DNA of 47,170 nucleotides from positions 1 through 47,170 of the forward strand of contig JANXWH010000236.1 in NCBI GenBank assembly GCA_025351245.1, written 5' to 3'. Source of the DNA: Chloroflexota bacterium. GTDB lineage: Bacteria; Chloroflexota; Limnocylindria; Limnocylindrales; CSP1-4. How positions within the stretch are numbered: the stretch's first letter is position 1; every line of letters starts with the position of its first letter. Positions 1-16,754 of the stretch are shown one piece after another. Made by a program: the position numbers and the translations under genes. The notes under the pieces are model-generated. The model was not told where the DNA came from and ran no database searches. It worked only from the letters and a program-made list of their open reading frames with translations.

Positions 1-1
1 C

Positions 2-709
2 GTCAGCGCCCGCCATGCCGGCATCGAAGTCGTCCATCAGCTCGAAGCTGCCGCCGGACCGCCGGGCATTCTCCGCCGCCTGCGCGACGATGTCTGCGGG
101 GAGCTTGAATTCCGGCGGATGGACCAGCCGCACGTGCATCCCGTAGCGGGTCGTGAGGAGCGACAGGTCCACGGGAACGCTGATCGGCTTCTGATAGCTG
201 GCCGCGTAGGCCCAGCTGATCGCGATCGTGCGGCCCCGCGGGTCGCCCTTCTTCTCCTGGATGGTCAGGAGGTCGGCGAGCGACTGGTGGGGGTGGAACA
301 GGTCGCACTGCATGTTGAGGACGGGCACCCGGCTGGCGGCCGCCACATCCCGGATGTACTGGTTCCCCACGCCCCAGTCGACGTTCCGGATGGCGATCCC
401 GTCGTTGTAGCGGCCCAGGATCTCGCCGATCTCCGTGGCCGTGTCCCCGTGCGAGATCTGGGTCGTGCGGCTCTCGATGAACTGGGCGTGACCGCCCAGC
501 TGGGCCATCCCGGCCTCGAACGAGGCCCGGGTGCGGGTCGAGGAGAAGAAGAAGAGCATGGCGAGGACGCGGTCCCGCAGGAGCGGGTGCCCGATCCCGA
601 GGGCCCGCTCCCGCTTCAGCTGGAGGGCGACGTCGAGGACGGTGTCGATCTCCTCCTTCGTCCACTCCTGGAGGCTGATGAGGTCGCGGCCGCGCAGGTT
701 CGTCTGCAT
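2..709 (-). CDS. YgeW-like (knotted) carbamoyltransferase, 3' end outside window
   Basis: Manual translation from ATG 709: MQTNLRGRDLISLQEW...FFFSSTRTRASFE...NMQCDLFHPHQ...ISWAYAASYQKPISVP. It has the STRT and HPxQ carbamoyl-phosphate motifs and a WAYxxSYxKP loop as in YgeW. Not in the ORF track because it runs off the edge. Confidence 0.85.
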   Translation of the reverse strand, partial: MQTNLRGRDLISLQEWTKEEIDTVLDVALQLKRERALGIGHPLLRDRVLAMLFFFSSTRTRASFEAGMAQLGGHAQFIESRTTQISHGDTATEIGEILGRYNDGIAIRNVDWGVGNQYIRDVAAASRVPVLNMQCDLFHPHQSLADLLTIQEKKGDPRGRTIAISWAYAASYQKPISVPVDLSLLTTRYGMHVRLVHPPEFKLPADIVAQAAENARRSGGSFELMDDFDAGMAGAD

Positions 710-718
710 GGCGTCCCC

Positions 719-1672
719 TTACTCCGCCGCGCCGAGGACGAGCGAGAGGAGCGACATCCGGAGGCAGACCCCGTTGAACGCCTCGACCCAGTAGCGCTGG
801 TGGCGCGTGGCGTCGACGTCCTCCGGCAGCTCGTCCATCCGCGGCAGGGAGTGGAGGATGATCGAGCTCCGCTTCGCCTTCTCGCGCAGGAGCTGGCGGC
901 TGACGACGTACTCCGGCGGCGTGAGGCCGGTCTCGCCGGTGCGCTCGACGCGCGAAGCCGTGTAGTCGGCCTGGACGACCGGCTCCATGTAGATGACATC
1001 GGCCTCGCCGATCACGTCGCGGACGTCGCCGGCCTCGCGGTAGGCCACGTTCAGCTCGTCGAGCTCGGCCTTGAACTCGGGCAGGAGCGACATGTCCGGC
1101 GGCCCGACCACGATCGCCTCGGCGTCGAACTGCGAGAGGGCGTAGAGGATCGAGTGCATCGTCCGCATCCGCATGTCGCCGACGAGGAGGTAGGTCAACC
1201 CGTCGAGCGTGCCCTTCTCCCGCAGGATCGTGTAGAGGTCGGTCAGGACCTGGGTCGGGTGCTCGCCCCACCCGTCGCCGCAGTTGATGACCGGGACCGA
1301 CGCCCACTTCGCGGCCTCGTGCGGGGCGCCCTGCAGGAAGTGCCGGATGGCGATGACGTCGGCGTAGTACTCCAGCATGTGGAAGGTGTCCTTGATCGAC
1401 TCCTGGTAGAAGTCGCCGGCGCGCGTCATCTTCGAGTCGGAGAAGCCGAGGACGTGCCCGCCCAGGCGGTGCATGGCCGCCTCCGTGGAGAGCCGCGTCC
1501 GGGTGCTGGGCTGGTAGAACGCGGTCAGCAGCGATTTGTGCTTCAGCAGGTCCGTGTTCCGGCGGTCCCGGGCGAACGGGGCCAGGTCGTCGGCGACCTG
1601 GAAGACCCGGAAGAACTCGTCCCGGCTGAAGTCCTTCAGCGAGAGGATGTCGCGGCCTGCAAAACTACGCAT
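719..1672 (-). CDS. Aspartate carbamoyltransferase-like protein with altered substrate pocket
   Basis: FYQPSTRT, IRH, GDGWGEHPTQ, GDMRMRTMHS and HSLPR motifs. RBS AGGAAGG lies about 9 nt upstream of ATG 1672. Confidence 0.85.
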   Translation of the reverse strand: MRSFAGRDILSLKDFSRDEFFRVFQVADDLAPFARDRRNTDLLKHKSLLTAFYQPSTRTRLSTEAAMHRLGGHVLGFSDSKMTRAGDFYQESIKDTFHMLEYYADVIAIRHFLQGAPHEAAKWASVPVINCGDGWGEHPTQVLTDLYTILREKGTLDGLTYLLVGDMRMRTMHSILYALSQFDAEAIVVGPPDMSLLPEFKAELDELNVAYREAGDVRDVIGEADVIYMEPVVQADYTASRVERTGETGLTPPEYVVSRQLLREKAKRSSIILHSLPRMDELPEDVDATRHQRYWVEAFNGVCLRMSLLSLVLGAAE

Positions 1673-1761
1673 TACTGGCACCTTCCTGTGGGTTCAATTG
1701 ATACGCCGGAAGCAACATCTTCCGACCCTGTCCACGCTTCCAACAAATGCGCCGACTCGAT

Positions 1762-2580
1762 TCACACACGTGCATCGACTGGCACCGCCACCGCAAGACC
1801 AACCGCCCGCCCATGTGGCGCTGGACCCTCGGAGACCTGGGGAGAGAGTTGGTTAACGCGGCGAATGATGTGAAAGCGGAAGTGACCGGGACTGAAGTAG
1901 CTGACCGAGTAGTCCACGACGCGCCCAGTTGCCGCGTAGAGCTGTGCGGAGAACTTGAGAAGGGGATCTCCGACACGCAGATGAAGCCGGTGTGCCATGT
2001 CGGTATCCGCCGCCTCCGCGCCCAGTTCCGTATGGGAGTGCTTGAGCGGTGGATCGCCGCGCCGTAGCAGGAAGTCCAGCACCGAACCGTCAAAAGAGTC
2101 CCCCAGCTCCTTCGGGTCCAGGACGTCGGTCGGGACCACGTCGATGAGGAAGGCAATTGGACGCTCGCCTGACATCATCACGCGCTGGACAGCCAGAACT
2201 GTGCTCGCTGGGGACATCTGCAGAGACTCCGCCTCGCCCGGCGCGGCCGCTCGCTCCCGGATCTCGCATTCGCCCATATGGATCTCCACCCCGATGCTCT
2301 GAGCGAGGGTTTCGATGCTTTGGAGCTCCTCCAGCCCCGCGACGACGAGGGGATGACGTGGGCCGACAAAGGTTCCGATCCCGTGGCGACGGACGATCAG
2401 GCCGCCCTGCTCCAGCTGCGAGAGTGCCTCCCGAAGAGTCGCTCGGCTCACGCCGATGCGTTGACTGAGCGTGGCTTCCGAGGGCAGAAGTCCGTCGTCG
2501 CCTGCCAACGCCCCCGACTGGATCCCCTCGGCGACTTCCTGGGCCGCTTGCCGGGCCAAGGTCAGATTACGGCGAACCAT
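1762..2580 (-). CDS. GntR family (HutC/UTRA) transcriptional regulator
   Basis: LPSEATLSQRIGVSRATLREAL...RRHGIGTFV winged HTH, followed by a UTRA-like C-terminal domain. Confidence 0.92.
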   Translation of the reverse strand: MVRRNLTLARQAAQEVAEGIQSGALAGDDGLLPSEATLSQRIGVSRATLREALSQLEQGGLIVRRHGIGTFVGPRHPLVVAGLEELQSIETLAQSIGVEIHMGECEIRERAAAPGEAESLQMSPASTVLAVQRVMMSGERPIAFLIDVVPTDVLDPKELGDSFDGSVLDFLLRRGDPPLKHSHTELGAEAADTDMAHRLHLRVGDPLLKFSAQLYAATGRVVDYSVSYFSPGHFRFHIIRRVNQLSPQVSEGPAPHGRAVGLAVAVPVDARV

Positions 2581-2804
2581 TTCACCTGCTTCGCGTGTAC
2601 GTGTAGGTGTCCCGCGTGTGGCATGCCGTGGAGACGATGCCTCGGCGGCCGGGTGTACGTGCGCCGGAAGGACGGCGGCTCACAGCGACATCGCGAGCGG
2701 GGCGCACCATGTCGCCGATTCAGCCGTGGCAGGCCAGCCGTGACATCCCGATCCGGGACACGAGACTGGTGCTGGCGAGAGCCGTTGAATCACGAGCTGT
2801 CACT

Positions 2805-2877
2805 CCAGACATCAGACGCTAGTCATCCGACATCCTCTCCGAGCCCGCATTGTGCCAAGCCAAGCCGCCCTGTCCAA
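2805..2877 (-). promoter_or_regulatory. Candidate sigma70 promoter and downstream GntR-like operator repeats for the gntR operon
   Basis: Minus strand TGGACA-N16-CACAAT with a TG extension (2849-2876). Repeated CATC(A/C)GAC motifs lie at about 2805-2835. Confidence 0.35.
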
Positions 2878-3028
2878 AGTGCCATTCGGCCTGTTGACCG
2901 GTTGCCGACGATGCGTGTTCACCACACCGGAGATCGCCACACACTCCCGGCCGTCGAGCACTCCGGCACCGGCCATGCCGCACGCCGACCCGATGGGCGC
3001 GGAAGCGCGTCCTGGCAATGGCGGCCTC

Positions 3029-3304
3029 TCAAGTTCGGCGGTCCCGCCGTCGTGTCACGCTCTCGCGGCTACGCACGCGCCCACGTGCATCGGCGCAGTC
3101 ATGGCAGTACCGCTGAACCGGCGAGCGCCGCTCGACGACCTGCCTGCAGTCCTGACACTCGAGCGGCGCGACCTTCAGCCACGCGCGGGAGCGGCCCGGG
3201 CGGGGGAGCGTTACTGTGGCCCGCCCCTCTCTGCGGATCCGCCTCGCTCTTTCAGTAGGCGTTACCCCGCCCACAGGCGGGAGGGTCCGGCCCGCCGGAG
3301 CCAC
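3029..3304 (-). CDS. Small hypothetical zinc-ribbon protein
   Basis: CQDC-x11-YCHDC (two CxxC pairs) followed by an Arg-rich tail. Start codon uncertain. Confidence 0.45.
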   Translation of the reverse strand: MAPAGRTLPPVGGVTPTERARRIRREGRATVTLPRPGRSRAWLKVAPLECQDCRQVVERRSPVQRYCHDCADARGRVRSRESVTRRRDRRT

Positions 3305-3308
3305 TCAC

Positions 3309-3530
3309 TTACTGAATCCCGCCGGTTAACACCTTCTCGGTCGCGGCCTTCCAGACGATGACCGCGTGGCTCTCGCGACTGCCGACGTCGATTCGCTCGA
3401 AGAGGTCGCGGACCCAAGCCACGGCGCCTCCTCCGAGCCATGCTCGGCTGCCGGCCGACGCACGAGGCCGTTCTATGCGTCCACCGTGGACCCCCATTTC
3501 CCGCCGCCGAGTGGCGACTGACATGCCCAC
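3309..3530 (-). CDS. Small hypothetical protein
   Basis: Short ORF ending 4 nt before the zinc-ribbon ORF on the same strand. No recognisable motif. Confidence 0.3.
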   Translation of the reverse strand: MGMSVATRRREMGVHGGRIERPRASAGSRAWLGGGAVAWVRDLFERIDVGSRESHAVIVWKAATEKVLTGGIQ

Positions 3531-3636
3531 CGTCCCGCTGTCGGGCCTCCCGGCCGTTGCGCTGCGAGTAGCGCTACCCCCGCGGCCCTATCGGCCACGC
3601 AACCCACCAACATCGACCGTGAGCCGGCTGTCCAGC

Positions 3637-5259
3637 TCAGTGAGTCGCCTTGAGCGCGGCCAGAAGTGCGGCCCCGTCCGGCCGGCCCAGCCCGGTGCAG
3701 GCGTCCCAGCCGAGTCCCGCCCCGTAGGCCCCATTGCCGCCGGCCGTGATGTCCCGGAATACGCTCGATGGAGCCCCGTAGAGCAGCGGATTCAGGAAGC
3801 CGACGGGCTTGTTCAGCTGCTGGTTGAGCTGCGCGACGAGGGCAGCCAGGAGTGGTGCGACCGCACTGGTCCCACCGATGACCATCTGCTGCCCGTCCAC
3901 GCGGACCTCGTACCCGCTGACCGGGCTGGCGTCACCGGCGACATCGGGCACGCCGCGGCCGACCCGCCCGCCGGGGTTGGCCGACCTGGGCACCGCTGCG
4001 CTCGCCTGATACGCGGGCAGATCGAAGTAGTCGCTGATCCCTCCACCCGTCGAGCCACCCTGGGCCCCGTCGTTCCAGGCCAGCTCGTCGCTGATCGAGG
4101 CCGTCGAGGCGATCAGGTGAGTCCCGCCGCAGGCGACGACATGCGGGCTGGAGGCCGGGAAGTCCGCGTGGGCGAGGCCATCCCCGACGGCGTCGTCCGA
4201 CCCGTTGTCGCCGGACGCACAGAGAACGGTGACCCCCACGAGAGCGGCTTCCTGGAATGCCTGGTCCATCGCCTGCATCGCCTGGGCGGTCCAATGCTGC
4301 TCCGCCCCTCCCCAGCTGATGGAGATGACAGATGGCTTGTTGACGTTGTCCTGGACCGCGGCGGTCACCGCGTCCAGGAAGCCCCGGTCCGTGTTCGGGG
4401 CGAAGTAGACCGCGATCCTGGCGCCCGGGGCCACCGATCCGGCCACCTCGATGTCCAGCATGACCTCCCCGTCGGCGCTGTTCGGCGTGGTCGGTCGGCT
4501 CTTCGCTCCGTCGACGGAGACTGCGACGATCTTCGGCGCGGAGATGCCCAGTTGCGCGAAGTACGCCTTCAGGTCGCCCCTTCGAAGTCCCCCGCCCAGC
4601 TCGATGATGGCGATGCACTGCCCGCTCCCCGTGGCGGCGGGCACGAAGTCGTAGAGGCGAGCGACCTGCGGTGGTGTGAACGACGTCGCGGCGACGGCCG
4701 GCGCCGCACGTGGCTGCAACGAACCGGCAAGCGAGACGGCGGGCTTCCCCTCGATCGGGAGCGAGCGGAAATGCGGCTTCGCCTGCGGCCGGTCGTCAAG
4801 GCCGAACACTCCCTCGACGATGGCGTCGAGTTCGGTGGGAATCGTCACGGGACCGGTGCGCCCGCGATACGTCCCCTGGGCGGACTGGTACCGCTGAAGC
4901 GTCACCCCGAACGCCGCGCTGACATTCTGGGCGGGACCGGCCAGGACGAGCTTCCGCTGGGCCCGATCGGCCTCGATGACCTCCAGCCCATGCTCCGCCG
5001 CGAACGACCTGACGGCGGCAATGTCGGCTGGGTCTGCGCCCAGGGTGGTGCGCAGCTCGTCCCGCGTCAGGTAGCGGCGTTCTCCTATGCTCTGGGACGA
5101 CACGGCAGGCGCCGCCGGAATCGTGGCCGAGGGGCGCGGTCGGACCCGCACCGTGACCTCGATGCGCTCGTCAGGATGGACATCGCCGATGACCTGAGCT
5201 CCCGGCATCGCCTCGCGGCCGCTGCCAGGAACCTGAACTCTCGCCTTCTCGGAAGTCAC
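3637..5259 (-). CDS. S53 family (sedolisin/kumamolisin-like) serine-carboxyl peptidase with prodomain
   Basis: GEVMLDIE (Glu/Asp), ASGDNG oxyanion Asp, GRGVPDVA, GGTSAVAP catalytic Ser and GWDACTGLG. GTG 5259 follows a G-rich RBS. Confidence 0.95.
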   Translation of the reverse strand: MTSEKARVQVPGSGREAMPGAQVIGDVHPDERIEVTVRVRPRPSATIPAAPAVSSQSIGERRYLTRDELRTTLGADPADIAAVRSFAAEHGLEVIEADRAQRKLVLAGPAQNVSAAFGVTLQRYQSAQGTYRGRTGPVTIPTELDAIVEGVFGLDDRPQAKPHFRSLPIEGKPAVSLAGSLQPRAAPAVAATSFTPPQVARLYDFVPAATGSGQCIAIIELGGGLRRGDLKAYFAQLGISAPKIVAVSVDGAKSRPTTPNSADGEVMLDIEVAGSVAPGARIAVYFAPNTDRGFLDAVTAAVQDNVNKPSVISISWGGAEQHWTAQAMQAMDQAFQEAALVGVTVLCASGDNGSDDAVGDGLAHADFPASSPHVVACGGTHLIASTASISDELAWNDGAQGGSTGGGISDYFDLPAYQASAAVPRSANPGGRVGRGVPDVAGDASPVSGYEVRVDGQQMVIGGTSAVAPLLAALVAQLNQQLNKPVGFLNPLLYGAPSSVFRDITAGGNGAYGAGLGWDACTGLGRPDGAALLAALKATH

Positions 5260-5471
5260 AATGGTCCCCCCTTCCAGGACTATCCAGCACGTTCGCCACG
5301 GCTCCAACCCCGCAGGGTCCCACCGTCAGGTCCTTCGCCTCGTCACTGCCCGCGCATGCACCGGGCAAGGGCCGGCTCGCGGTGAGGGTGTTGCATCCTG
5401 GGCGACCGATCGGTCGCCGCTTGTCGGGTTGCGACCGACCTCGTGGCCGGCCGCAACCCGATCTCCAGGCG

Positions 5472-7478
5472 TTACCGCTTGCAGAACGCCATGTGGTCGG
5501 AGAAGGTGCCGAAGACCCCTCCGTAGCCAGAGGTGAGATTCAGCGTCGCCTCGAGCCACACGATATAGGCGCATGGCGTCAGGGCGGCGATGTTGAAGTC
5601 ATGCCCACCGCCCGGTGAGACCGCCTGACCATCCACCGAGATGGCCGGGTTGACCGGAGCAGGTGGCGGGATCCCCGGGCCCTCGAGCCGGACATCCAGG
5701 CTGGCGAGGTACGGGTGGTAGGCCGTGAAGACGACGTGGACGTGGGTGCTCAGCGGGACGCAGCCGCCGCCGCTGGCCTCTTCGACGATATCGACGGCGA
5801 GCACAGGGATCGTGCTCACGGGACCGCCAGCCCACTCCGGGTGCCGGATGTAGGTGTACAGGGTGTTGCTGAGGGCGATTTTGACGCGCTCGTTGGAGCT
5901 CACCGCCGCGCCGCCCACGACCTTGCGTGCGTCGAAGTAGATCTTGAAGTGCGGCTTCTCCGACTTCTGTCCGGCGGGCACGCTGTCGCCGGCCTTGAGG
6001 GGCAGCGGCGGTGCGTTGACCGAGAGGTCGAAGACTTCGCTCGTCAGCTTCGTCGTGTCAAGGTTGGCCAGGCCACCGGTCGGGATGAACCGCCCGAGCC
6101 CGCCGAAGGTCAGGCTGTTGTCGCGGGGGACCTCGATCCAGCCACCCGGCTTGACGTCCTTGTTGACCGGGACGGGCGTGGAGGCGCCAGGTCCGGTGTT
6201 GACCGTGGCGATCGCGCCTGGGTTGTTGACATAGTAGTTGGCCGACCGGAGCGTGTAGCTGAGCCCGTTCCAGTCCCAGTATTCGAGCTGGCCGATCACC
6301 GTGGCCGGGATCATCGCCGCGGTCACATCCTGGCGACCGCCGCCGAGTGGGTACTTCTCAGTCTGGAACCGATACTCCTCGGCCTCGGGCGCCGTGCCGT
6401 CGGGCAGGATGCCGATGAGCGGGATGGTCCCGGTGAAGGCGAGACCCCCGGCGGTCGTCGTGCCGTCGGCGGTGAAGTCGTTCCAAATCGGATCAACGCG
6501 ATACGAACCGACGTGGGTGAAGAGCGGGATCGTTGTCGGCGGTCGGCAGATGCAGAAGCAGAACCGCTCGCAGCTCTCGTAGCAGATCCAGTGGCAGAGC
6601 TGGTGGCAGAAGCGGGTGAGTTCGAGTTCCTTTACGAGCGCCGAGAACGCGGGCTCGTTTTGGGAGAGGACCGCCTCGGCGAGACGTTCGAATGCGCCCT
6701 CAACCTTGGCGACCCGAGCGACCGCCTGCGCGAAGGCGCGCATCTCCTCGATGGGTGATTCGATCGCCCGGGGCAGGTCGCCGCACAGACGGCGGCAGAC
6801 GAGCACGCAGCGCCAGCTGCAGAGCCACAGGCAGATATACTCGCAATCGCCTCGGTCGCCGACCAGATTCGCAACGCGCTCACAGTCGAGCTCGAGCGCC
6901 CCCTTGATCAGTTCGCCGAGCGAGTCGCGACTCTCAAGCAGGCGCCGAACGGCGGATCCGGCGACGCTCAGCTCCGCGACGAAGTTCCTCGGCTCGATCG
7001 GCCTGGGCGAGCAGACAATCCCGCAGCGGAGGCGACACCGCACCTGGCAGGCCCAGTGACACAGCAGGTGCGCGAAGCGTTCGCCTTCGACCTGCTTGAG
7101 TAGCCCAGAGAACGCATGCTGGTCGCGGTCCTCGACCGCATCCGCGAGACGCTCGACGAGTTCCTCGTCCTGGGTGATCTTGACCAGGATCTCGGCGAAC
7201 CTGGGCAGCTCGTCGACCGTTACCGGCTGCTCCGGCCAGGGCCCGGCGAGCTCCAGGCAGAGCAGCACGCACTCCTTGGCGCAGAACCAGTGGGATATCC
7301 CCTCGCAGTCGGCCGCCAGGCCGAACTGTCCGAGAAGGCGCTGGAAAGACTCGCCGTCCTCGCCCCGAAAGGCATCCAGGGCGGCCCTGAAGACCGTCTC
7401 GTCCTCCGCGATCCGGCCCATCGCCTCGCCAGATCGCCGGAGATCGTCGAACAACTGCTGCTTGTCTTCCAGAGGCAT
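5472..7478 (-). CDS. Hypothetical protein with four helical Cys-ladder repeats and a beta-rich C-terminal domain
   Basis: 668-aa ORF with a GGAGGAG RBS and natural amino-acid composition. Four ~75-85 aa repeats each end in a C-x3-C-x3-C series. Confidence 0.88.
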   Translation of the reverse strand: MPLEDKQQLFDDLRRSGEAMGRIAEDETVFRAALDAFRGEDGESFQRLLGQFGLAADCEGISHWFCAKECVLLCLELAGPWPEQPVTVDELPRFAEILVKITQDEELVERLADAVEDRDQHAFSGLLKQVEGERFAHLLCHWACQVRCRLRCGIVCSPRPIEPRNFVAELSVAGSAVRRLLESRDSLGELIKGALELDCERVANLVGDRGDCEYICLWLCSWRCVLVCRRLCGDLPRAIESPIEEMRAFAQAVARVAKVEGAFERLAEAVLSQNEPAFSALVKELELTRFCHQLCHWICYESCERFCFCICRPPTTIPLFTHVGSYRVDPIWNDFTADGTTTAGGLAFTGTIPLIGILPDGTAPEAEEYRFQTEKYPLGGGRQDVTAAMIPATVIGQLEYWDWNGLSYTLRSANYYVNNPGAIATVNTGPGASTPVPVNKDVKPGGWIEVPRDNSLTFGGLGRFIPTGGLANLDTTKLTSEVFDLSVNAPPLPLKAGDSVPAGQKSEKPHFKIYFDARKVVGGAAVSSNERVKIALSNTLYTYIRHPEWAGGPVSTIPVLAVDIVEEASGGGCVPLSTHVHVVFTAYHPYLASLDVRLEGPGIPPPAPVNPAISVDGQAVSPGGGHDFNIAALTPCAYIVWLEATLNLTSGYGGVFGTFSDHMAFCKR

Positions 7479-7914
7479 GGGACGCTCCTCCGCTGCGGCT
7501 GTCGCCGAGATCGCATCACCTGGACGGGCCTTGGCCGCTCCATGGCTGCCCGGGCCTCACGTCTCGCTGGTAGATCGCGAGAGCCGAGCCGGGCGCAGCC
7601 GCAACCCTCACCGACGGGTGGGCCAGAGTCGCGCGAGCGATGCATTCCGGTCGGGTCTTCGGGTCACAGGCGAAACCCGGAATCACTCGACCTCGCCCGG
7701 CTCCATCGCTTGCGGTTCGACCACGAGTCGGCCATCAGGTAGATGCCGTGTCGCTCACGTCATCTCTGGCGTGGCGAGATCTCGGTCCGAATTGGGCGTA
7801 GTGGGGCGCGCCGGACTGGCGGCCAGCGTATCGACGTTCGGGCAGGTCGTCAAGCGATGTGAACCGCCGTGTCACCGACGACAGGGTGCTCGAACCGGCG
7901 CTCAAACAGGGGGG

Positions 7915-7943
7915 TTGAAGTCTTGGGATCGTCGTCCTATCGT
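7915..7943 (+). promoter_or_regulatory. Candidate sigma70 promoter for the M64 peptidase gene
   Basis: TTGAAG-N17-TATCGT, 28 nt upstream of ATG 7972. Confidence 0.45.
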
Positions 7944-7971
7944 ATGGTTTCGGAGTGGACGGGGGGTACAC

Positions 7972-10044
7972 ATGCCGGACAGCGTTACTCAGATTCGGGC
8001 GGCCGGGCCGGTTGGCTCGAAGCGCAACCTCGTGGTCCTCGGGGATGGCTTCGGCAGCGCTGACCAGACGGCGTACAACAACTGGGTCCAGACAGCGCTG
8101 ATCGACGGCGTCTTCGGTCACGATTACTTCTACGAAGACGCGTCGGCGTGGAACATCTTCCGCGTCAACCTGGTCTCCACGGACTCCGGCGTGAACGTCC
8201 GCGTCTACGACGAACACGGAACCCCGGCCGACTCCAGCGACGACACCATCACCAGCACCACGACGCGCAACACGGCGCTCGACATGATCTTCAGCGGCTC
8301 GTGGTCGCACTGCTGGATGGAGTACGGCGCAAACACGGAGACCCGCATCCAGGCAGCGTTGAAGAAGTGGGTGCCGGACTATAACTTCGTCCTGATCGTC
8401 CTCAACTCCCCGGACTACGGCGGCTGTGGCGGAGGTGGTCGGGCCCACGTCACGCTCGGTGACGACTGGACGGTGATTGCCCACGAGTTCGGCCATGGCC
8501 TGGGCGGACTGGCCGACGAGTATTGCGTCGCGGGCAACTACACGGGCGGCGAGTCCGGTTCGGTGGATCTGACCATCAACACGGACCGAGCGACTCTCAA
8601 ATGGGGCAATTTCGTCAATCCCGGTACGCCGGTGCCCACCGGCAGCGGGACCTGTGCCGGCTTCAATCAGGGCACGAAACCCGCCACCTGGGACGACAAC
8701 CAGGACGTCGGCCTGTTCGAGGGCGGCGGCACGATGAACACCGGCATCTTCCGCCCGGTGATCAACTGCCGGATGCGCAGCAACAGTCCCGCCTACTGCC
8801 CGGTCTGCTACACGTCGTTCAAGCGCCAATACGACGGCTGGACGGGCCATGCCTTCATCAAGAGCTACGCCGGTGACTTCAACGGCGACGGCAAGAGCGA
8901 CGTGCTCGTTCACAGTGGTAACTCGATCCAGGTCTTTCGCTCGACCGGCACGCAGGCCGACCTGGTGTTCAGCGCCGTCGAGCGCGTGCCCGGATCGTGG
9001 CAGTTCCAGCCGAACGACAAGTTCTACATTGGCGACTTCAACGGCGACGGCAAAGACGAGGTCGCGGTCTTCAACGGCGTCGACTGGGTGATGCCGTACC
9101 TGGGTTTGCTCGCCGACGACGGCGCTGGCGGCCTTCGACTCATCGCTCGGTACGATGGTGACATTCCCGGCTGGGGCGGCCTCGCGAGGAACGACCAGTT
9201 CTACGTGGGCGACTTCACCGGCGATCATAAGCAGGATCTGTTCGTCTTCAACGGCGCCGACTGGTCGATGACCTACGTTGCCATGCTCCGCTCCACGGGC
9301 ACCGGCTTCGAGCTCGTGCACCGCTTCGATGGCGACATCCCCGGCTGGGGCGGTCTGGCCCGCAACGACCAGCTGTTCGTCGGCGACTTCAGCGGAGACG
9401 GAAAGGCCGACCTCTACATCTTCAACGGCGCCGATTGGGCCATGAGCTACGTGGGCATGTTCCGTTCGACGGCCACCAACCTGCAGATGACCTCGCGGTT
9501 CGACGGTGACATCCCAGGTTGGGGCGGCCTCGCCAGGAATGACCGCCTCTATGTCGGCGACTTCAACGGCGACCACAAGGCCGATCTCTACATCTTCAAT
9601 GGCGTCGACTGGAGCATGAGCTATCTCGGGATGTTCCGATCCACGGGAACCGGCCTCCAGATGGCCAACCGCTTTGACGGTGATGTGCCCGGATGGGGCG
9701 GGCTCGCCCGCAACGACCAGTTCCTCCCCGCCGATTTCAGCGGAGATGGCAAGACCGACCTCTTCGTCTACAACACCCAGGATTGGGCCACGGAATACCT
9801 CGGCCGCATGAGATCGACCGGGAGCGCCCTCACGGCCGACTTCGTCGGCGACTGGGTCGGGGAGTGGAACCTGAGCGGCGCAGACCGGTATGAGGTCTGC
9901 AACTTCGAGGGCCTGACGGGACAGCCGGACCTCTTCGTCCACAATCAGGACTGGTTTGGGATGATCCGTGGACGGAGATCACTCTCGCTCAACAAGATCT
10001 ACTCGCGCTGGATCCACAACTATCGCTATGGCCGTAACTGGTGA
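7972..10044 (+). CDS. M64 family (IgA peptidase-like) zinc metallopeptidase with C-terminal FG-GAP/VCBS-like repeats
   Basis: NLVVLGDGF, HEFGHGLGGLADEY zinc motif, GLFEGG...IFRP...CRMRS...YCPVC, then repeated GDFxGDxKxD motifs. ATG 7972 follows a G-rich RBS. Confidence 0.92.
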   Translation: MPDSVTQIRAAGPVGSKRNLVVLGDGFGSADQTAYNNWVQTALIDGVFGHDYFYEDASAWNIFRVNLVSTDSGVNVRVYDEHGTPADSSDDTITSTTTRNTALDMIFSGSWSHCWMEYGANTETRIQAALKKWVPDYNFVLIVLNSPDYGGCGGGGRAHVTLGDDWTVIAHEFGHGLGGLADEYCVAGNYTGGESGSVDLTINTDRATLKWGNFVNPGTPVPTGSGTCAGFNQGTKPATWDDNQDVGLFEGGGTMNTGIFRPVINCRMRSNSPAYCPVCYTSFKRQYDGWTGHAFIKSYAGDFNGDGKSDVLVHSGNSIQVFRSTGTQADLVFSAVERVPGSWQFQPNDKFYIGDFNGDGKDEVAVFNGVDWVMPYLGLLADDGAGGLRLIARYDGDIPGWGGLARNDQFYVGDFTGDHKQDLFVFNGADWSMTYVAMLRSTGTGFELVHRFDGDIPGWGGLARNDQLFVGDFSGDGKADLYIFNGADWAMSYVGMFRSTATNLQMTSRFDGDIPGWGGLARNDRLYVGDFNGDHKADLYIFNGVDWSMSYLGMFRSTGTGLQMANRFDGDVPGWGGLARNDQFLPADFSGDGKTDLFVYNTQDWATEYLGRMRSTGSALTADFVGDWVGEWNLSGADRYEVCNFEGLTGQPDLFVHNQDWFGMIRGRRSLSLNKIYSRWIHNYRYGRNW
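9031..9800 (+). repeat. In-frame 174-nt (58-aa) tandem repeats within the M64 gene
   Basis: GDF/ADF codons start at 9031, 9208, 9382, 9556 and 9730 (periods 177, 174, 174, 174). The DGD(I/V)PGWGGLARND segment is conserved. Confidence 0.9.
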
Positions 10045-10056
10045 GGCGGGTGACGT

Positions 10057-10890
10057 ATGGCTGACAAGGCACTGCCATCGAAGCCAGAGCGGGGCACGCC
10101 GCTTGCGCCGTCGAGGGCCATGGGGTCGGTCAAGGGAGAAGCAGCCGGTTCGCGGCCACGTGCGCGGGGGCGGCTGAAGCTCAAGGCAGCGGCCACCAGT
10201 GATGAGCGGGTCGAACTGCGGATAGGCAAGGGTCCCGTCAAGGCTGAGGGTCGTGAGCCCCGGCCTCGTTCGGCGAGTCATGGGAAAGCCAAGCCGACCG
10301 ATAGCGGGGCTGCCGCGTCGACCAAGCAGACGTCGGGCCGGCGCGGTGGGCAGGACGACATGCCAGACCAGGTTGCTGTCCGACGACGTCGGGACCCTGG
10401 AGAGGGGCCGGGCCGCTACGTGCGGTTCCGCGTCCGGGTCGAAGACGGTGAGATGTCCATCGTCGACAGCCAGGTCGTGGATAGCGCCCTGGTGATGCCG
10501 CCGACTCTGCACGGCGACTACGCCTACGAGGTCACCGACGGCACCAGGCTCCTGCACGCCGACAGTCTTCCGGATCTTGGCGTCGTTCGATCGTTCAGTG
10601 ACCCGAACGGGACGCGTGAACAGCTGCGGCACCATACGTACCGGGAGTCGACCTACGAATTCGACGTCCGCGTCCCGGCGGAGGAGCTGACGCGAGCGGC
10701 CCTGTCGAAGATTGCGGTTGTCCTGTACCGCGTCAAAGAGCACGCACCCACCCGCAATCTGACGACCGCCCTGCCCCTCGGCGTCCAGTTCGAGCGCGAG
10801 CTCCGAGAGGTGACGCGAGTCTCACGGATTCCGCCCGACGCGCTCCCCAGTTCGCTGCGAAGGACACCTCGGGCTCGGTCGACGACGTAG
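10057..10890 (+). CDS. Hypothetical protein co-transcribed with the M64 peptidase
   Basis: Starts 12 nt after the M64 stop. Basic, disordered N-terminus, then a globular-looking region (YVRFRVRVEDGEMSIVDS...). Alternative start at 10360. Confidence 0.75.
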   Translation: MADKALPSKPERGTPLAPSRAMGSVKGEAAGSRPRARGRLKLKAAATSDERVELRIGKGPVKAEGREPRPRSASHGKAKPTDSGAAASTKQTSGRRGGQDDMPDQVAVRRRRDPGEGPGRYVRFRVRVEDGEMSIVDSQVVDSALVMPPTLHGDYAYEVTDGTRLLHADSLPDLGVVRSFSDPNGTREQLRHHTYRESTYEFDVRVPAEELTRAALSKIAVVLYRVKEHAPTRNLTTALPLGVQFERELREVTRVSRIPPDALPSSLRRTPRARSTT

Positions 10891-11048
10891 GCCAGGCCAC
10901 GTCTCAGGCTCCCACGCTGATTTCGTCCGACCCGTTGCCCCGGCCCGAAGTGGTCCGGCGGACGGCCCGTGCGACTGGGTGACCGTGGCTGGCCGGGTCG
11001 CGACGAGCCACGGTCGACGTCTCTCCGGCTGGCAGCCGGGAGCCGGCG

Positions 11049-11804
11049 TCAGAGGCGCCTGAGGTTGATGCGCACCGGCGCGGCCGGGCCGATCGCGCGG
11101 TGCACGGTCGTCCAGTTGATGGGGCCGGTGAAGCAGTGGCCGAGCGCCACGCAGAGCCCGCCGGAAAGATCCCAGACCCGGCCCGCGACGTACGGCCCGC
11201 GGTCGATCACCGGCGCGATCACGGTCCGGCCGCGGTAGGTGAATGCCACGAGCGAGCCGCATGGGAGCGTTCTGTGGGCGACGCCGACGACGGTGCGAGT
11301 GAACAGGACCCCGCAGGCCGTCAGCCTGGCCCGCGCGGACCGCCCGCGCTGCGGGAGGCACGCCTTCACGCGGTTCGAGACGCAGTAGAAGCCCGGGCCG
11401 TAGAACGAGACGCGAGACGCCTGCCATGCGCCAAGGCCAACGAATGCCGGCAGCTGGTATGGCTGCCCCTTCAGCGTCGCTACAGCGACGGCGCCCGGCG
11501 GCGGCGTGGGGCTCGGGGTTGATATCGGCGAGAGGGCCACAGGCGGTTCGGGCGACGCCGGCGCGGATGGTTCGGGCGAAGGGCTCGGGCTCGCCGCTGG
11601 CGCGCCGGACGCGCTCGGCACAGGGGAGGCGCTCGGCGCGCCGGACGCGCTCGGCGCAGGGGATGCGGCCAGGTCGGACGCGGCGGCGACGGCCAGCGTC
11701 GGCACGCCGGCGCTCGCCAGGACAACGACGCCGAGGAGCGTGATGGCCAGCCCCTTGAGGCGGCCGACGCGTTTCGAGGTCGGGGGATGGAAATGTGCAG
11801 GCAT
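11049..11804 (-). CDS. Secreted RlpA-like (double-psi beta-barrel) protein
   Basis: Signal/TM segment, Pro/Ser/Ala linker, and SFYGPG...TACG...GVAHRTLPCG...VIDRGPYVAGRVWDLS motifs. RBS AAGGGAG. Confidence 0.85.
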   Translation of the reverse strand: MPAHFHPPTSKRVGRLKGLAITLLGVVVLASAGVPTLAVAAASDLAASPAPSASGAPSASPVPSASGAPAASPSPSPEPSAPASPEPPVALSPISTPSPTPPPGAVAVATLKGQPYQLPAFVGLGAWQASRVSFYGPGFYCVSNRVKACLPQRGRSARARLTACGVLFTRTVVGVAHRTLPCGSLVAFTYRGRTVIAPVIDRGPYVAGRVWDLSGGLCVALGHCFTGPINWTTVHRAIGPAAPVRINLRRL

Positions 11805-12215
11805 GGACAGCTCCCTTCGAGCAGATGCGGAACGCTGCCCGGGAGGCCGCGCCGGCAGAGCGACGCGGGGATTGGAACGCGGCGGGCACCGGGAGGGCCA
11901 GGGACGCCGCAAGCCCGATGAGAGCGGCGCCCGGCGACCGGGCAGCGAGCGATTCGGTTCGACTCCACGTGCCCCCGCGGCATTGCGGGGATGGGTCTGC
12001 GACGGGTCGGCGCTCGGCCGTTCGAGACGGCACCGGCCCGTGCAGGCGTCCCCGTGGGGCGGGGACGAGGATTGCAGGCTCACCACCACGGGACCCGGTC
12101 CGCCAGTCGGCGACCGGTCGGTTCGCCCGTCATGGGGCGTCGCGGCGCGAGACCTGGGGCGCACCCGCCTGATGTGCAGGCACGTCCGACGGCGGAGTCT
12201 AGCCGACCTTTCGGA

Positions 12216-12270
12216 ATGGCGCTCGTGGCGCGGCCGACGCTGATGGCGCTGATGGCGCTCGTGGCGCGGC
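12216..12270. repeat. 19-bp direct repeat with intervening 9-bp tandem units
   Basis: ATGGCGCTCGTGGCGCGGC at 12216 and 12252, with tandem GCTGATGGC units between them. Confidence 0.7.
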
Positions 12271-12396
12271 GCGGGCCCGACCCCGCCAGCACGAACGAGC
12301 CGCCGAACGGCACGGCCGCCGGACCTGGAGGCTGGCCGGCCCCTCATGACCCTCAGCGTGCGGCCCCGCGCTACCCTGTGCGCGGAGGTCGATGCA

Positions 12397-14781
12397 ATGA
12401 CAGACCAGGGACGGACCAAGGTCGAGCCAATCGGGCCGCTCGCGGAGGCGGAGCTGGAGCAGATCGACGCCTACTGGCGCGCCGCGAACTACCTCTCGGT
12501 CGGCCAGATCTACCTGCTGGACAACCCGCTGCTCCGCGAGCCGCTTGCCCCCCGGCACTGCAAGCCGCGCCTGCTGGGCCACTGGGGCACCACACCGGGC
12601 CTGAACTTCATCTACGCGCACATGAACCGTGTCATCCGGAACTGGGACCTCGATGCGATCTACGTCATCGGGCCCGGGCACGGCGGCCCGGCGATCGTGG
12701 CGAACGCGTACCTGGAGGGAACCTACAGCGAGGTCTACCCGAGCATCACCCGGGACGCGGACGGCCTGCGCCAGCTCTTCCGGCAGTTCTCGTTCCCGGG
12801 CGGGATCCCCAGCCATGTCGCGCCGGAGACCCCCGGCTCGATCCACGAAGGCGGCGAGCTGGGCTACGCGCTCTCCCATGCCTACGGTGCCGCGTTCGAC
12901 AACCCGGACCTCATCGTCTGCTGCGTCGTCGGCGACGGCGAGGCGGAGACCGGGCCCCTTGCCACCAGCTGGCACTCGAACAAGTTCCTCGACCCCGTCC
13001 GCGACGGCGTCGTCCTCCCGATCCTCCACCTCAACGGCTACAAGATCGCCAATCCCACGGTCCTCGCCCGGATCCCGGAGGACGAGTTGCGGGCCCTCAT
13101 GGAGGGCTACGGGCATCACCCGTACTTCGTCGAGGGGGACGATCCGGCCCTCATGCATCAGCAGATGGCGGCCGTGATGGACGCCGTGGTCGCCGAGATC
13201 CAGGAGATCCAGCGCGCGGCCCGCGGCGGCGATGCCACCGAGCGCCCGCGCTGGCCGATGATCGTGCTCCGAAGCCCGAAGGGCTGGACCGGCCCGAAGG
13301 AGGTCGACGGACTGCCCGCGGAGGGCTCCTGGCGCTCGCACCAGGTCCCGTTCGGGGAGGTCCGCACGAACCCCGAGCACCTCGCCCTCCTCGAGACCTG
13401 GCTCCGGAGCTACCGGCCGGAGGAGCTCTTCGATGCCGACGGCGCGCTCATCTCGGAGCTCGCCGAGCTGCCCCCCAGGAGCTACCGGCGGATGAGCGCC
13501 AACCCGCACGCGAACGGAGGGCTCCTGCTGCGCGACCTTGCGCTGCCCGACTTCCGCGACTACGCCGTGGACGTGCCCACGCCGGGCGCCACCACGGCCG
13601 AAGCGACGCGCGTGCTCGGCACGTTCCTCCGCGACGTCATCGATCGAAACCGCGAGACCTTCCGGATCTTCGGTCCAGACGAGACGTCGTCGAACCGGCT
13701 GGGCGCCGTGTTCGAGGTGACGGACCGCCAGTTCGACGCCCAGATCCTGCCGACGGACGAGCACCAGGCGCCGGAGGGCCGGGTGATGGAGGTCCTCTCA
13801 GAGCACCAGTGCGAGGGCTGGCTGGAGGGGTACCTCCTCACCGGCCGGCACGGCCTCTTCAACTGCTACGAAGCCTTCATCCACATCATCGACTCGATGT
13901 TCAACCAGCACGCCAAGTGGCTGAAGGTGACGAACGGCATCCCGTGGCGGCGACCGATCGCCTCGCTCAACTACGTCCTCAGCTCGCTCGTCTGGCGCCA
14001 GGACCACAACGGCTTCAGCCACCAGGACCCGGGCTTCATCGACCACGTGGTGAACAAGAAGTCCGAGGTCATCCGGGTGTACCTGCCGCCGGACGCGAAC
14101 ACGCTGCTGTCCGTGGCCGATCACTGCCTGCGCAGCCGCCAGTACGTCAACGTCATCGTGGCGGGCAAGCAACCCGCCCCGAACTGGCTCTCGATGGACC
14201 AGGCCGTGCTCCACTGCACCCGTGGCATCGGCATCTGGGACTGGGCCAGCAACGACCAGGGCGGCGAGCCCGACGTCGTCATGGCCTGCTGCGGCGACAC
14301 GCCGACGCTGGAGACGCTGGCCGCCGTCGACATGATCCGCCAGCACCTGCCGGACCTGAAAGTGCGGCTTGTCAATGTCGTCGACCTGATGCGCCTCCAG
14401 CCGGCGACGGAGCACCCCCACGGGATGTCGGAGACCGAGTTCGATTCGCTGTTCACCCGCGACAAGCCGGTCATCTTTGCCTATCACGGCTACCCGTGGC
14501 TGATCCACCGCCTCACCTACCGCCGGGCGAACCACGTCAACATCCACGTCCGCGGCTACAAGGAAGAGGGCACGACGACCACGCCGTTCGACATGGTCAT
14601 GCTCAACGACCTCGACCGGTTCCACCTCGTGATGGACGTGATCGACCGCGTGCCGGGCCTGGGGCCACGGGCCGCGCACGTCCGCCAGCTGATGGTCGAC
14701 CGGCGCCTGGTCGCGCGGGCGCACACGCGCCTGGAGGGCGAGGACGCGCCCGAGATCCGGGCCTGGTCCTGGCCGCACTGA
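12397..14781 (+). CDS. xfp: Phosphoketolase (xylulose-5-P/fructose-6-P)
   Basis: [25 protein letters not shown]...NGYKI TPP motif, LSEH and [20 protein letters not shown]. Confidence 0.97.
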
Positions 14782-14794
14782 CCCCAACCATCCG

Positions 14795-15907: not shown

Positions 15908-16754
15908 AGACCACCTCCGCGAACTGGCGGATGGCCGCATTGAAGGCCTCCGGCTGCTCGCTGTTGACCAGGTGCCCGGCGCCCTCGATGACGCGCAGCC
16001 GCCCCTCGCGGCAGGCAGCCAGGAACGTGCGCTCGCTGCGCCGGAAGAGCGGGTCGTCGGCGCCGTTCACCAGCAATACCGGGCCCGGGTACGCCGCCAG
16101 CCGGGGCAGGAACGAGGTTCGGAGCGCCGTCACCACCGCTCGGTAGCCGCCCTTGAAGAGCCAGCCGTTGGTCGCGCGGGGCGCCGGCCCGGAGGTGGGC
16201 CCGCCGGCGTGCACCGGAGCGCCGCGCCCCAGGTATCGCTCGCCGACTCGGTCGGCAAGGTAGACGCCCACGGTCCGCGGGGCGCGCCGCGCGACGGTTC
16301 GCGGCTCCGCGCTGGAGTTGCAGAGGACCAGCCCCGCCACGTGCCCGGGGTGGGCGGCGGCGAGCTCCATGGCGACGTATCCGCCCAGCGATTGCCCGAC
16401 CACGATCGCGCGACCGCCGTTTCGGTCGATGACGGACCGCGTGATGGCGACCGCGCGCGGCATCCGGAAGGGCATGTCGGCGAAGACGCCGTGGCCGGGC
16501 AGGTCCACGGTCACGACGCGGTACCGGTCGGTCAGGGCGGCCACCTGCGGATCCCACATCGCGCGCGTGACGCGCGTGCCGTGAAGGAAGACGAGCGTCG
16601 GTGCGTCCTCGGGGCCGGCCACGTCGAAGGCTGCCGAGACGTCGAGACGGTCGGCCGGCTCGGCAGCGGCGGCAGGCTCGGCCACGGCGACCGTCTCGGC
16701 CGCGGTGGCCGCAGCGGAAGGCAGCCCGTCACCGCCGGACGCGGTCGTCTCCAT
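15885..16754 (-). CDS. Alpha/beta fold hydrolase
   Basis: FLHG, DLPGHG, GQSLGG nucleophile elbow and GAGH catalytic His. Confidence 0.92.
   Translation of the reverse strand: METTASGGDGLPSAAATAAETVAVAEPAAAAEPADRLDVSAAFDVAGPEDAPTLVFLHGTRVTRAMWDPQVAALTDRYRVVTVDLPGHGVFADMPFRMPRAVAITRSVIDRNGGRAIVVGQSLGGYVAMELAAAHPGHVAGLVLCNSSAEPRTVARRAPRTVGVYLADRVGERYLGRGAPVHAGGPTSGPAPRATNGWLFKGGYRAVVTALRTSFLPRLAAYPGPVLLVNGADDPLFRRSERTFLAACREGRLRVIEGAGHLVNSEQPEAFNAAIRQFAEVVFTTPASQ

Follow-up and report, generated by a model that had tools for sequence, protein, structure and literature searches.

Helices that face each other through cysteines four residues apart (CX3C) are known only as a two-rung device, in the small Tims, where the rungs are disulfides or hold zinc, and in the copper storage protein Csp3, where they carry Cu4 clusters; plant alpha-hairpinins share the two-rung motif. 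We report on a gene for a 668-residue protein with 26 cysteines, identified from the open reading frame (ORF) list and its translation at positions 5472..7478 on the minus strand (stop codon 5472-5474) of a 47,170-nucleotide stretch of DNA from a Chloroflexota bacterium (hereafter the window; assembly GCA_025351245.1, contig JANXWH010000236.1, positions 1 to 47,170). Covariation among homologs shows that four cysteine helices in the N-terminal half of this protein pair in register as two separate ladders, and we refer to it as the ladder protein. Its rungs may be disulfide or dithiol staples, and the main alternative is that they bind a soft metal.

According to PMC3759932, in oxidised small Tims the C1-C4 and C2-C3 disulfides of twin CX3C motifs link one helix to another that runs antiparallel to it, the reduced form binds one zinc ion through the same four cysteines, and the redox state depends on the compartment. 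The ladder protein likewise has antiparallel helices joined in register via cysteines at i+4 spacing, and the nested pairing of an outer and an inner pair that characterises twin CX3C proteins was recovered for it by direct coupling analysis (DCA), contingency counts and phylogenetic contrasts (see below). Whereas the small Tims have two rungs in a helix-loop-helix of about 10 kDa and belong to the intermembrane space of eukaryotic mitochondria, the ladder protein has five to six rungs per helix pair and two such pairs, its paired helices are about 60 residues apart and embedded in a repeat domain, and the family is bacterial and archaeal. Homology to Tim9/Tim10 is not indicated for this 668-residue bacterial and archaeal protein, which has no Pfam match.

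The copper storage proteins (Csps) are described in PMC10155185 as single bundles of 108-136 residues with 16-19 cysteines, all pointing into one core, and the Csp3 forms as cytosolic. In MtCsp3, Cys97 and Cys101 together with Cys114 and Cys118, placed on different antiparallel helices, form Cu4(S-Cys)4 (PMC5519932), and the position sums of these cysteines are equal (97+118 = 101+114). Csp1 and Csp3 resemble the ladder protein in being helical and very rich in cysteine, with CXXXC facing CXXXC on neighbouring antiparallel helices, an arrangement that in the ladder protein has constant position sums of 214 and 523. Unlike the Csps, the ladder protein has a domain of 316 residues and 16 helices, two separate two-helix ladders with strict i+4 spacing, rungs that are dispensable pairwise, and an attached beta domain of 350 residues. 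No sequence match to a Csp was found in Pfam, NCBIfam or PDB, the last of which contains Csp structures, and no Csp chain is among the 50 structural matches listed by VIA.

The cystine ladder of the theta-defensins also has parallel Cys-Cys rungs joining two antiparallel segments, but there are three rungs between beta-strands of an 18-residue cyclic peptide, in contrast to the alpha-helices of a folded domain in the ladder protein. In the literature searched the term cystine ladder was found only for theta-defensins, and no description of helical multi-rung cysteine ladders was retrieved, the results for CX3C being swamped by chemokine papers. Metallothioneins are short, low-complexity, cysteine-rich chains that lack a stable fold when metal is absent; assignment to them was rejected, the ladder protein having regular repeats, confidently predicted helices and invariant Trp core residues.

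Four repeats with conserved cysteine helices

The N-terminal domain (N-domain; residues 1-316, 6531..7478, all features of the protein being on the minus strand) is predicted by AlphaFold2 to comprise 16 helices in four homologous repeats. Boundaries taken from HHalign and from DSSP of the model place repeat 1 at residues 1-82 (7233..7478; cysteine helix 55-78, nt 7245-7316), repeat 2 at 83-160 (6999..7232; cysteine helix 133-156, nt 7011-7082), repeat 3 at 161-236 (6771..6998; cysteine helix 212-232, nt 6783-6845) and repeat 4 at 237-314 (6537..6770; cysteine helix 288-311, nt 6546-6617). These repeats of about 78 residues are homologous in all six HHalign comparisons (probability 99.0-99.8%, E 2.6e-18 to 6.6e-29), and each is modelled as three short helices plus one cysteine helix of 21-24 residues. 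The C-terminal domain (C-domain; residues 317-668, 5475..6530), delimited using AlphaFold2, VIA and invariant columns, is predicted to form two Ig/FN3-like beta-sandwiches, residues 319-666 being beta-rich. The full-length model, based on an alignment of 105 sequences, reaches a predicted local distance difference test score (pLDDT) of 93.9 and a predicted TM-score (pTM) of 0.77. The initial annotation had described this layout, i.e. four helical repeats each with an i+4 cysteine helix and a beta-rich domain of about 350 residues behind them, and both parts were borne out.

Twenty-three of the 26 cysteines lie within residues 1-312 (span 58-311), in agreement with the earlier count of about 23 in the repeat part, and the four cysteine strings quoted at that time are all present. 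Most are spaced by exactly four residues: 58, 66, 70, 74, 140, 144, 148, 152, 156, 199, 212, 216, 220, 224, 228, 232, 291, 295, 299, 303, 307, 309 and 311, with 573, 636 and 666 in the C-domain. Poor conservation among homologs had been named as a ground for rejection; the cysteines are in fact strongly conserved. Each of the best 120 of 277 homologs has 22-33 cysteines, and the N-domains cut from genome loci (58 of 58) have 20-26 at identities down to 29%. In the 105 full-length sequences C212, C216, C220, C228, C295, C303, C307 and C311 are invariant, as are W64, W142, W222 and W297, i.e. the conserved Trp that the initial annotation had noticed; C58, C62, C70, C74, C140, C144, C152 and C156 are conserved in at least 90%. 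Since the cysteine count, the ladder cysteines and the tryptophans are kept across homologs, the pattern is not due to chance.

Covariation of the cysteine rungs

The N-domains of all proteins and loci in hand were aligned to a profile, 223 were kept at a coverage of at least 85%, and these were reduced to 201 at no more than 95% identity (effective number of sequences, Neff, 159) for mean-field DCA over 49,141 pairs. Cys-Cys pairs take seven of the first 13 ranks; in order of rank (1, 2, 3, 6, 7, 9 and 13) they are 66-148, 78-136, 70-144, 232-291, 199-309, 224-299 and 58-156, where positions 78 and 136 are both Ala in the window protein and Cys in most homologs. The residue numbers of the rungs between repeats 1 and 2 (R1:R2; ranks 1, 2, 3 and 13) always sum to 214 and those between repeats 3 and 4 (R3:R4; ranks 6, 9 and 81) to 523. 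Because these sums are constant, covariation shows the cysteine helices to be antiparallel and in register, those of repeats 1 and 2 with each other and likewise those of repeats 3 and 4. R1:R2 has the rungs 58-156, 62-152, 66-148, 70-144, 74-140 and 78-136, and R3:R4 has 212-311, 216-307, 220-303, 224-299, 228-295 and 232-291. One further pair, C199-C309, lies off the ladder, C199 being located in helix three of repeat 3.

Contacts between different cysteine helices, counted over the 300 best DCA pairs, number 11 for R1-R2, four each for R3-R4 and R2-R3, two for R1-R3 and none for R1-R4 or R2-R4. The R2-R3 contacts are antiparallel (sums 364-369) and run via non-Cys positions, the lower-ranked signals being weak. 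As judged by covariation the structure is thus two two-helix ladders, R1:R2 and R3:R4, which may still share one core. The initial annotation had suggested that the four cysteine helices form an intramolecular, thiolate-lined bundle for metal storage or sensing, and in this it was partly right: the cysteines are conserved, sit on helices and face other cysteines with a local geometry like that of Csp3, but the covariation gives two ladders and does not show a single thiolate-lined four-helix core, and no kinship with the Csps was detected.

Occupancy of the rungs follows the same pairing. Counted as both Cys, first Cys only, second Cys only and both non-Cys, the values are 56/0/5/139 for 66/148, 176/0/6/19 for 70/144, 167/7/0/27 for 78/136, 156/3/1/38 for 224/299, 178/3/0/17 for 232/291, 139/0/1/56 for 199/309 and 197/0/0/3 for 58/156. 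Over all 13 rungs (2583 cells) 2235 are Cys/Cys, 303 both non-Cys and 45 half-occupied, and the number of occupied rungs per sequence is 11 in 104, 12 in 45 and 13 in 23 of the 201. Partners have phi coefficients of 0.86-1.00, and every other combination lies between -0.28 and 0.54; the top values among non-partners join the two equivalent end rungs, and adjacent rungs give about 0. These patterns show rungs to be gained and lost strictly pairwise, and indicate that each is lost independently of its neighbours.

Vacated rungs are filled with few kinds of residues. The middle rung 66/148 is Arg/Tyr (58), Arg/Trp (19), Ala/Tyr (18) or Ala/Phe (12) in 107 of the 201 sequences; elsewhere we find Ser/Ser (25) at 224/299, Ala/Ala (12) at 78/136, Thr/Val (11) at 232/291, and Ala/Leu (14) or Ala/Ile (10) at 199/309. 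His, Met, Asp and Glu together account for 9 of 606 residues at vacated rungs.

As a control for kinship, phylogenetically independent contrasts were computed on a FastTree phylogeny of the same rows without the 26 Cys columns. When one position of 66/148 changes, its partner changes the same way in 12.5 of 14 contrasts (median p 2.4e-4); the corresponding values are 7.8 of 8 for 78/136 (median p 0.0078), 6.5 of 7 for 199/309 (median p 0.0156) and, for 70/144, 6.7 of 11 (p 0.0156) or 7.8 of 8 in the reverse direction (p 0.0078). Rungs 232/291 (4.5 of 5, median p 0.0625) and 224/299 (2 of 3, median p 0.5) have too few contrasts for significance. In no contrast did the partner change in the opposite direction, and 20 non-partner controls reached at most 3.0 of 7-14 (p at least 0.25). 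The tree-corrected counts therefore indicate that the covariation is not due to shared ancestry.

Relatives with fewer repeats behave alike. A profile search recovered two-repeat proteins, seven of them stand-alone (151-164 residues) and others fused to different beta domains, and in the 14 that were compared both cysteine helices of one chain pair the same way. Their middle rung is Cys/Cys in seven, non-Cys on both sides in six (SR, YR, GW, LV, SS and RS) and mismatched in one, a protein that is also without the last two rungs; co-losses to L/R and L/V were seen at two other rungs. In the window protein itself one rung is half occupied: Cys152 faces Ser62, whose codon TCC (7293-7295) differs from TGC by a single base. 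P0002 and P0005, the closest relatives of this protein, carry a Cys at position 62; exactly one half rung of this kind is present in 13 of the 105 full-length relatives, and none has more.

The independence of the rungs also bears on a reading in which adjacent rung pairs act as four-Cys blocks that hold Zn(Cys)4 or [4Fe-4S], giving a zinc-stabilised scaffold or an electron-transfer wire. Reduced Tim9/Tim10 bind one zinc through all four twin CX3C cysteines (PMC3759932). The best-conserved cysteines of the ladder protein form such four-Cys blocks, and the protein is predicted to be cytoplasmic. However, occupancy varies by rung and not by block (adjacent-rung phi about 0), odd rung numbers such as 11 and 13 are common, the pair 199-309 stands alone, and among the neighbouring genes scanned no Fe-S assembly or redox partner recurs. 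To our knowledge, helical [4Fe-4S] sites come mainly from designed proteins, which likewise counts against this reading, and we consider it improbable.

Predicted fold

Modelled alone with AlphaFold2, the N-domain is one compact domain (pLDDT 94.6, pTM 0.92). A VIA-align comparison with 48,161 PDB representative chains gave a best Z of 4.9, none reaching 5, where according to the notes of the tool helical models usually reach Z around 14; the best match was to globin domains (123 residues, root-mean-square deviation 4.5). Foldseek returned no match to the N-domain at E<=1e-3. On the model, the N-domain is a predicted new fold without a solved neighbour in the libraries searched. Foldseek found nothing useful in PDB with the full model (best E 5.3e-4, TM 0.09). 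A Foldseek search of BFVD returned no match at E<=1e-3, and the ESM Atlas gave no usable match or just generic Ig-like clusters at 0.86 or less. The earlier statement that no known family has this architecture holds for our searches of Pfam, NCBIfam, PDB, VIA, Foldseek and the ESM Atlas.

The compact fold speaks to the second proposal of the initial annotation, that of a multicore precursor of a ribosomally synthesised and post-translationally modified peptide (RiPP), in which every repeat would consist of a leader and a Cys-rich core, the latter being modified and excised. All four repeats do end in a Cys-rich stretch, a protease gene lies downstream in the window, and in the Verrucomicrobiota locus L060 the homolog is followed, 542 bp downstream, by an MbnB/TglH/ChrH-family gene (RiPP Cys-modifying; L060:12522-13454). 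It is the one instance: a RiPP-type enzyme accounts for 1 of 130 immediate-neighbour ORFs (from crude gene calls), and the neighbourhoods are unconserved. Moreover, the repeats fold as one domain, cysteines of different repeats co-evolve as contacts, and the whole 668 residues are conserved including the 350-residue beta domain, the N-domain over its full length at 29-88%. We regard the RiPP reading as essentially excluded.

Residues 316-668 align to FN3, PECAM Ig, RbmA and alpha2-macroglobulin MG sandwiches with VIA Z 7.2-8.3. This likeness (Z 7-8.3) is generic, falling in the range that the tool calls common for unrelated sandwiches. The C-domain differs from the Ig, FN3 and macroglobulin types in having no Pfam match and in its three invariant cysteines (C573, C636 and C666) and many invariant polar residues. 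Because this polar set is unusually conserved and accompanied by the invariant cysteines, the alignment suggests a specific site in the C-domain. We also weighed, and set aside, a Cry/colicin-type pore former built as a helical bundle, a tail or receptor-binding protein of a phage, a SoxY-like sulfur carrier, for which Z was 7.7 but tied with dozens of FN3 rows, and a protease trap resembling alpha2-macroglobulin. The trap had been prompted by the MG-like sandwiches and the neighbouring peptidases, but there is no thioester motif.

Family and distribution

No Pfam family reached its cut-off at E<=1, no NCBIfam family matched, and no PDB chain was found by sequence at E<=10; PADLOC and PHROGs gave no useful match for five family members (best PHROG E 0.021). 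A word-indexed search returned 277 homologs at E<=1e-3; almost all of the top 120 extend over the full length (about 670 residues), their identities are 44-88%, and every named one is labelled hypothetical. When 1.84 billion proteins were searched exhaustively with a profile of the N-domain, only 302 representatives were found at E<=1e-3. The ladder family is real but rare and unannotated.

Contigs from one genome per species yielded 73 loci over 12 phyla: Actinomycetota (26), Acidobacteriota (23), Pseudomonadota (12), Chloroflexota (4), with a single locus in each of eight more phyla. Two archaeal phyla, Bathyarchaeota and Nitrososphaerota, are among the carriers. The genome of the window has one copy, and none of 36 same-genus and 24 same-order genomes searched (many incomplete) has a match. 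The distribution is very patchy and the family horizontally scattered. In a scan of viral contigs none of 24 pattern matches was confirmed.

The domains also occur in other combinations. The N-domain was found with at least three other C-terminal beta domains, and the C-domain (52-57% identity) behind a different beta-rich N-half with transthyretin/CarboxypepD_reg-like signatures; the C-domain is the more widely shared part of the family. This sister architecture (loci L054, L056, L057, L058, L061, L063, L067, L068 and L073 and proteins P0272-P0313) has a Cys-containing N-half, no signal peptide and, at the junction, the motif CxCxxxC-PP...IPLFT(H/K)VG in common with the ladder family. In 36 sister proteins 14 Cys columns are conserved, and the distant pair 10/138 covaries perfectly (31 Cys/Cys, 5 both lost). 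Fusions of the C-domain longer than 1170 residues were not found, which is weak evidence according to the search tool.

In accordance with the initial annotation no signal peptide was detected. Of 213 homologs covering the start of the model, 193 begin within three residues of it, and none of the nine with more than 20 extra N-terminal residues looks Sec- or Tat-like. Since no export signal is present in these 213 homologs, the ladder protein is predicted to be cytoplasmic and made in a reducing compartment.

Possible disulfide staples or metal-thiolate sites

We favour the reading, to which we give an even chance, that the rungs are disulfide or dithiol staples in an extended twin CX3C geometry and may be redox-switched. 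Disulfide partners are favoured because the rungs are lost pairwise, independently of their neighbours, and are filled by packing or pairing residues. Strict pairwise loss is the classical signature of disulfide partners in alignments and would fit a continuous metal core less well; the pair 199-309, which stands alone off the ladder, and the covarying cysteines of the beta-rich sister family appear to point the same way. We infer disulfide chemistry, redox switching and any cellular role.

In the mechanism that we propose, each rung would be a self-contained Cys-Cys unit, either a disulfide staple or its reduced dithiol, and the N-domain would be an extended version of the small Tim twin CX3C helix pair, with up to six rungs per helix pair plus the staple C199-C309; most homologs have 11 of the rungs filled. 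As it has no signal peptide, the protein would be reduced, and possibly metal-occupied, in the cytoplasm. It would be locked covalently under oxidising conditions, whether these are met through oxidative stress, on leaving the cell or by way of a dedicated oxidase, and the ladder domain might then serve as a redox-set scaffold or switch for the C-terminal beta-sandwich module.

A membrane partner is conceivable. The survey of homolog neighbourhoods proposed in the initial annotation, in which 4304 ORFs from 73 loci and the window were clustered, gave one positionally conserved neighbour, a small DUF1360 membrane protein directly adjacent in 11 of the 73 loci (L010, L011, L014, L016, L025, L026, L027, L045, L046, L053 and L059) from Acidobacteriota, Gammaproteobacteria, Actinomycetota and Chloroflexota; apart from it the surroundings of the homologs are not conserved. 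The DUF1360 gene often overlaps the stop codon of the ladder gene. In an alignment of the DUF1360 neighbours DCFxC is invariant, as is a third Cys within the last hydrophobic segment, and no described function was found in the literature. An invariant DCFxC fits thiol chemistry at the membrane; from their sequences these cysteines would fit either thiol-disulfide exchange or metal hand-over there.

Several observations weigh against disulfide staples. No export signal was seen in 213 homologs and stable disulfides are unusual in a reducing cytoplasm, which is the main argument for a metal-binding alternative. The two-rung geometry of Csp3 binds Cu4 clusters, as stated in PMC5519932, and in PMC10155185 Csp cysteines are reported to form no disulfides and to stay reduced. 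Two-coordinate S-metal-S sites would, moreover, give pairwise co-loss as well. In a crude Crick model with C-beta atoms only and no steric terms, six consecutive rungs at disulfide distance need an unusually tight, right-handed helix pair, with axes 7.2 A apart (the lower edge of the radius grid), helices that cross at 24-34 degrees and supercoiling by at least +5 to +7 degrees per residue; a straight helix pair keeps all six rungs at 6.0-7.4 A, within the metal-bridging range. Both geometries are possible in such modelling. A DUF1360 gene is missing from the genome of the window (94% complete). With an odd number of cysteines in the consensus (10+14+3) at least one of them must stay unpaired, and the window protein carries the half rung S62/C152.

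The alternative is a store or sequestration device, like Csp3 but unrelated to it, in which Cu(I), or instead Ag, Hg or Cd, would be bound by Cys pairs in the reduced state, a reading we consider possible though on balance unlikely. Each protein would hold two linear arrays, made of two-coordinate S-M-S rungs or of Cu4(S-Cys)4 clusters from two adjacent rungs. Targeting or delivery of the load would fall to the beta-sandwich domain, and the metal would be handed over by the DUF1360 membrane protein with its CxxC. Apart from the predicted cytoplasmic location, this is consistent with 11-13 Cys pairs in about 310 residues and with CXXXC facing antiparallel CXXXC, which is the unit of the tetranuclear Csp3 cluster, Cu(I) preferring CXXXC (PMC5519932). 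That Csp cysteines remain reduced (PMC10155185) and that the straight-helix model sets rungs at 6-7.4 A would agree with it too. The best-conserved cysteines fall into the four-Cys blocks 58, 62 / 152, 156 and 70, 74 / 140, 144, and the DUF1360 CxxC neighbour in 11 of 73 loci can be counted in its favour. However, no Csp homology or fold match was found, just two helices supply ligands per ladder, and a closed thiolate-lined core is not shown. Rungs are dispensable singly, and the non-Cys middle rungs in 107 of 201 sequences would break a metal chain. His, Met, Asp and Glu are almost absent from vacated rungs (the 9 of 606 given above), the 130 immediate-neighbour ORFs (crude gene calls) include no copper-handling or metal-sensor family, and the covarying Cys pair in the beta-rich N-half of the sister family, which has the same C-domain, is typical of disulfides.

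A more specific form of this alternative would make the ladder protein a second, evolutionarily independent cytosolic high-capacity metal-thiolate store, its two ladders of 5-6 pairs being filled with Cu(I) or another soft metal; we think this rather unlikely. The ladders could in that case close to disulfides under oxidising conditions and expel their load, with coupling to a delivery or targeting domain formed by the beta-sandwiches and, in some lineages, a DUF1360 protein that feeds or empties the ladder.

Genomic context

A Shine-Dalgarno sequence, GGAGGAG, was read at 7485..7491 (minus strand), 6 nt 5' of the ATG of the ladder gene. Directly after the stop codon, a repeat search revealed a hairpin at 5424..5461 with 17-nt arms (88% complementary) and a 4-nt loop, which is a possible terminator, and because of it the ladder gene is probably monocistronic. 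A consensus scan near the ladder gene found no sigma-70-type promoter and no intrinsic terminator. The GC content at third codon positions (GC3) of the gene is 0.86, and the stretch that holds it has lower GC and GC3 (0.82-0.86) than its surroundings (GC3 0.94-0.97). This stretch is placed between the carbamoyltransferase genes and a phosphoketolase/acetate kinase pair. With respect to hallmarks of mobile elements, there is no tRNA gene within 1-16000 and there are no convincing flanking repeats around the ladder gene. Among sequencing runs only four, all of sediment DNA from one study and possibly the source, contain the stretch in full. A 3173-nt contig from a soil metatranscriptome assembly covers 5480-7478 with 180 differences and hence represents a relative; it is not counted as proof of expression, as DNA carry-over is possible.

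Two peptidase genes flank the ladder gene and share its low GC3 (all three 0.82-0.86, below the surrounding core genes). Downstream is an S53 sedolisin/pro-kumamolisin-type gene (3637-5307, minus strand), and divergently upstream a gene for an M64 (IgA-peptidase-like) domain followed by FG-GAP repeats (7972-10044, plus strand), in which 5-6 direct DNA repeats with a period of 174-177 nt (8859-9944) correspond to the FG-GAP units. Peptidase families of the S53 and M64 kinds are usually extracellular; both ORFs apparently begin at their domains, without a signal peptide. Elsewhere in the window there are two tandem aspartate/ornithine carbamoyltransferase-like genes (1-1681, minus strand; the first cut by the window edge) and, downstream of the S53 gene, a 91-residue ORF (3029-3304, minus strand) with zinc-ribbon-like CxxC...CxxC spacing, which has no Pfam match and may be no real gene. 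Two short direct-repeat pairs, each spaced 36 nt (11599-11667, 33 nt, 94%; 12216-12270, 19 nt, 100%), lie in an apparently non-coding stretch upstream of the phosphoketolase gene.

In the other loci, papain-type C1 peptidase genes without signal peptides stand beside homologs from three phyla (L017:8732-9640, L034:2711-3517 and L065:11626-12813), with an M23 peptidase in L015 and an M36 peptidase in L002; a BTAD regulator is nearby in five loci. The neighbouring ORFs come from crude gene calls, where a greedy choice of ORFs can take the wrong strand, and because of this and the differing families no conclusion is drawn from the peptidase neighbours. Overall, genomic context gives little on function.

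Peptidases, domain shuffling and patchiness could together suggest a toxin-like or binding protein that is stored and then released by lysis or activated by proteases, its hydrophobic cysteine helices being shielded by acidic helices until release, the variable beta-sandwich end binding a target and the ladder serving chiefly to stabilise the protein once it is outside. Like bacteriocins and toxins, the family exchanges modules, the N-domain occurring with other C-domains and the C-domain with another N-half. The spread is very patchy, without a match in any of the 36 genomes of the same genus or the 24 of the same order that were searched, the region has lower GC3, and peptidases are neighbours in the window (S53 and M64) and in some loci (C1 in L017, L034 and L065; M23 in L015). 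The protein has no signal peptide, and many toxin-like proteins likewise have none. Nevertheless, no toxin, defence or phage family matched, the Vip3/Cry fold matches were low-probability rows with TM about 0.1, and the family was absent from the viral contigs searched. Identities of 45-60% across phyla are unusual for host-specific weapons, and the peptidase neighbours are few and of differing families in a neighbourhood that is otherwise unconserved. We therefore hold this reading to be highly improbable.

Significance of the ladder family

The ladder family extends the pairing of CX3C helices from two rungs to 11-13 co-evolving rungs, in a repeat domain for which the PDB search gave no structural neighbour. 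Protein engineering could make use of cysteines at i+4 on both helices, with Arg-Tyr as an alternative rung. Should the rungs be thiolate sites, the ladder protein would be a new kind of metal store. If they are disulfides, as we favour, they would form the longest natural helical disulfide zipper that we have found described, in a protein made in the cytoplasm, and would raise the question of where and how such a protein gets oxidised.

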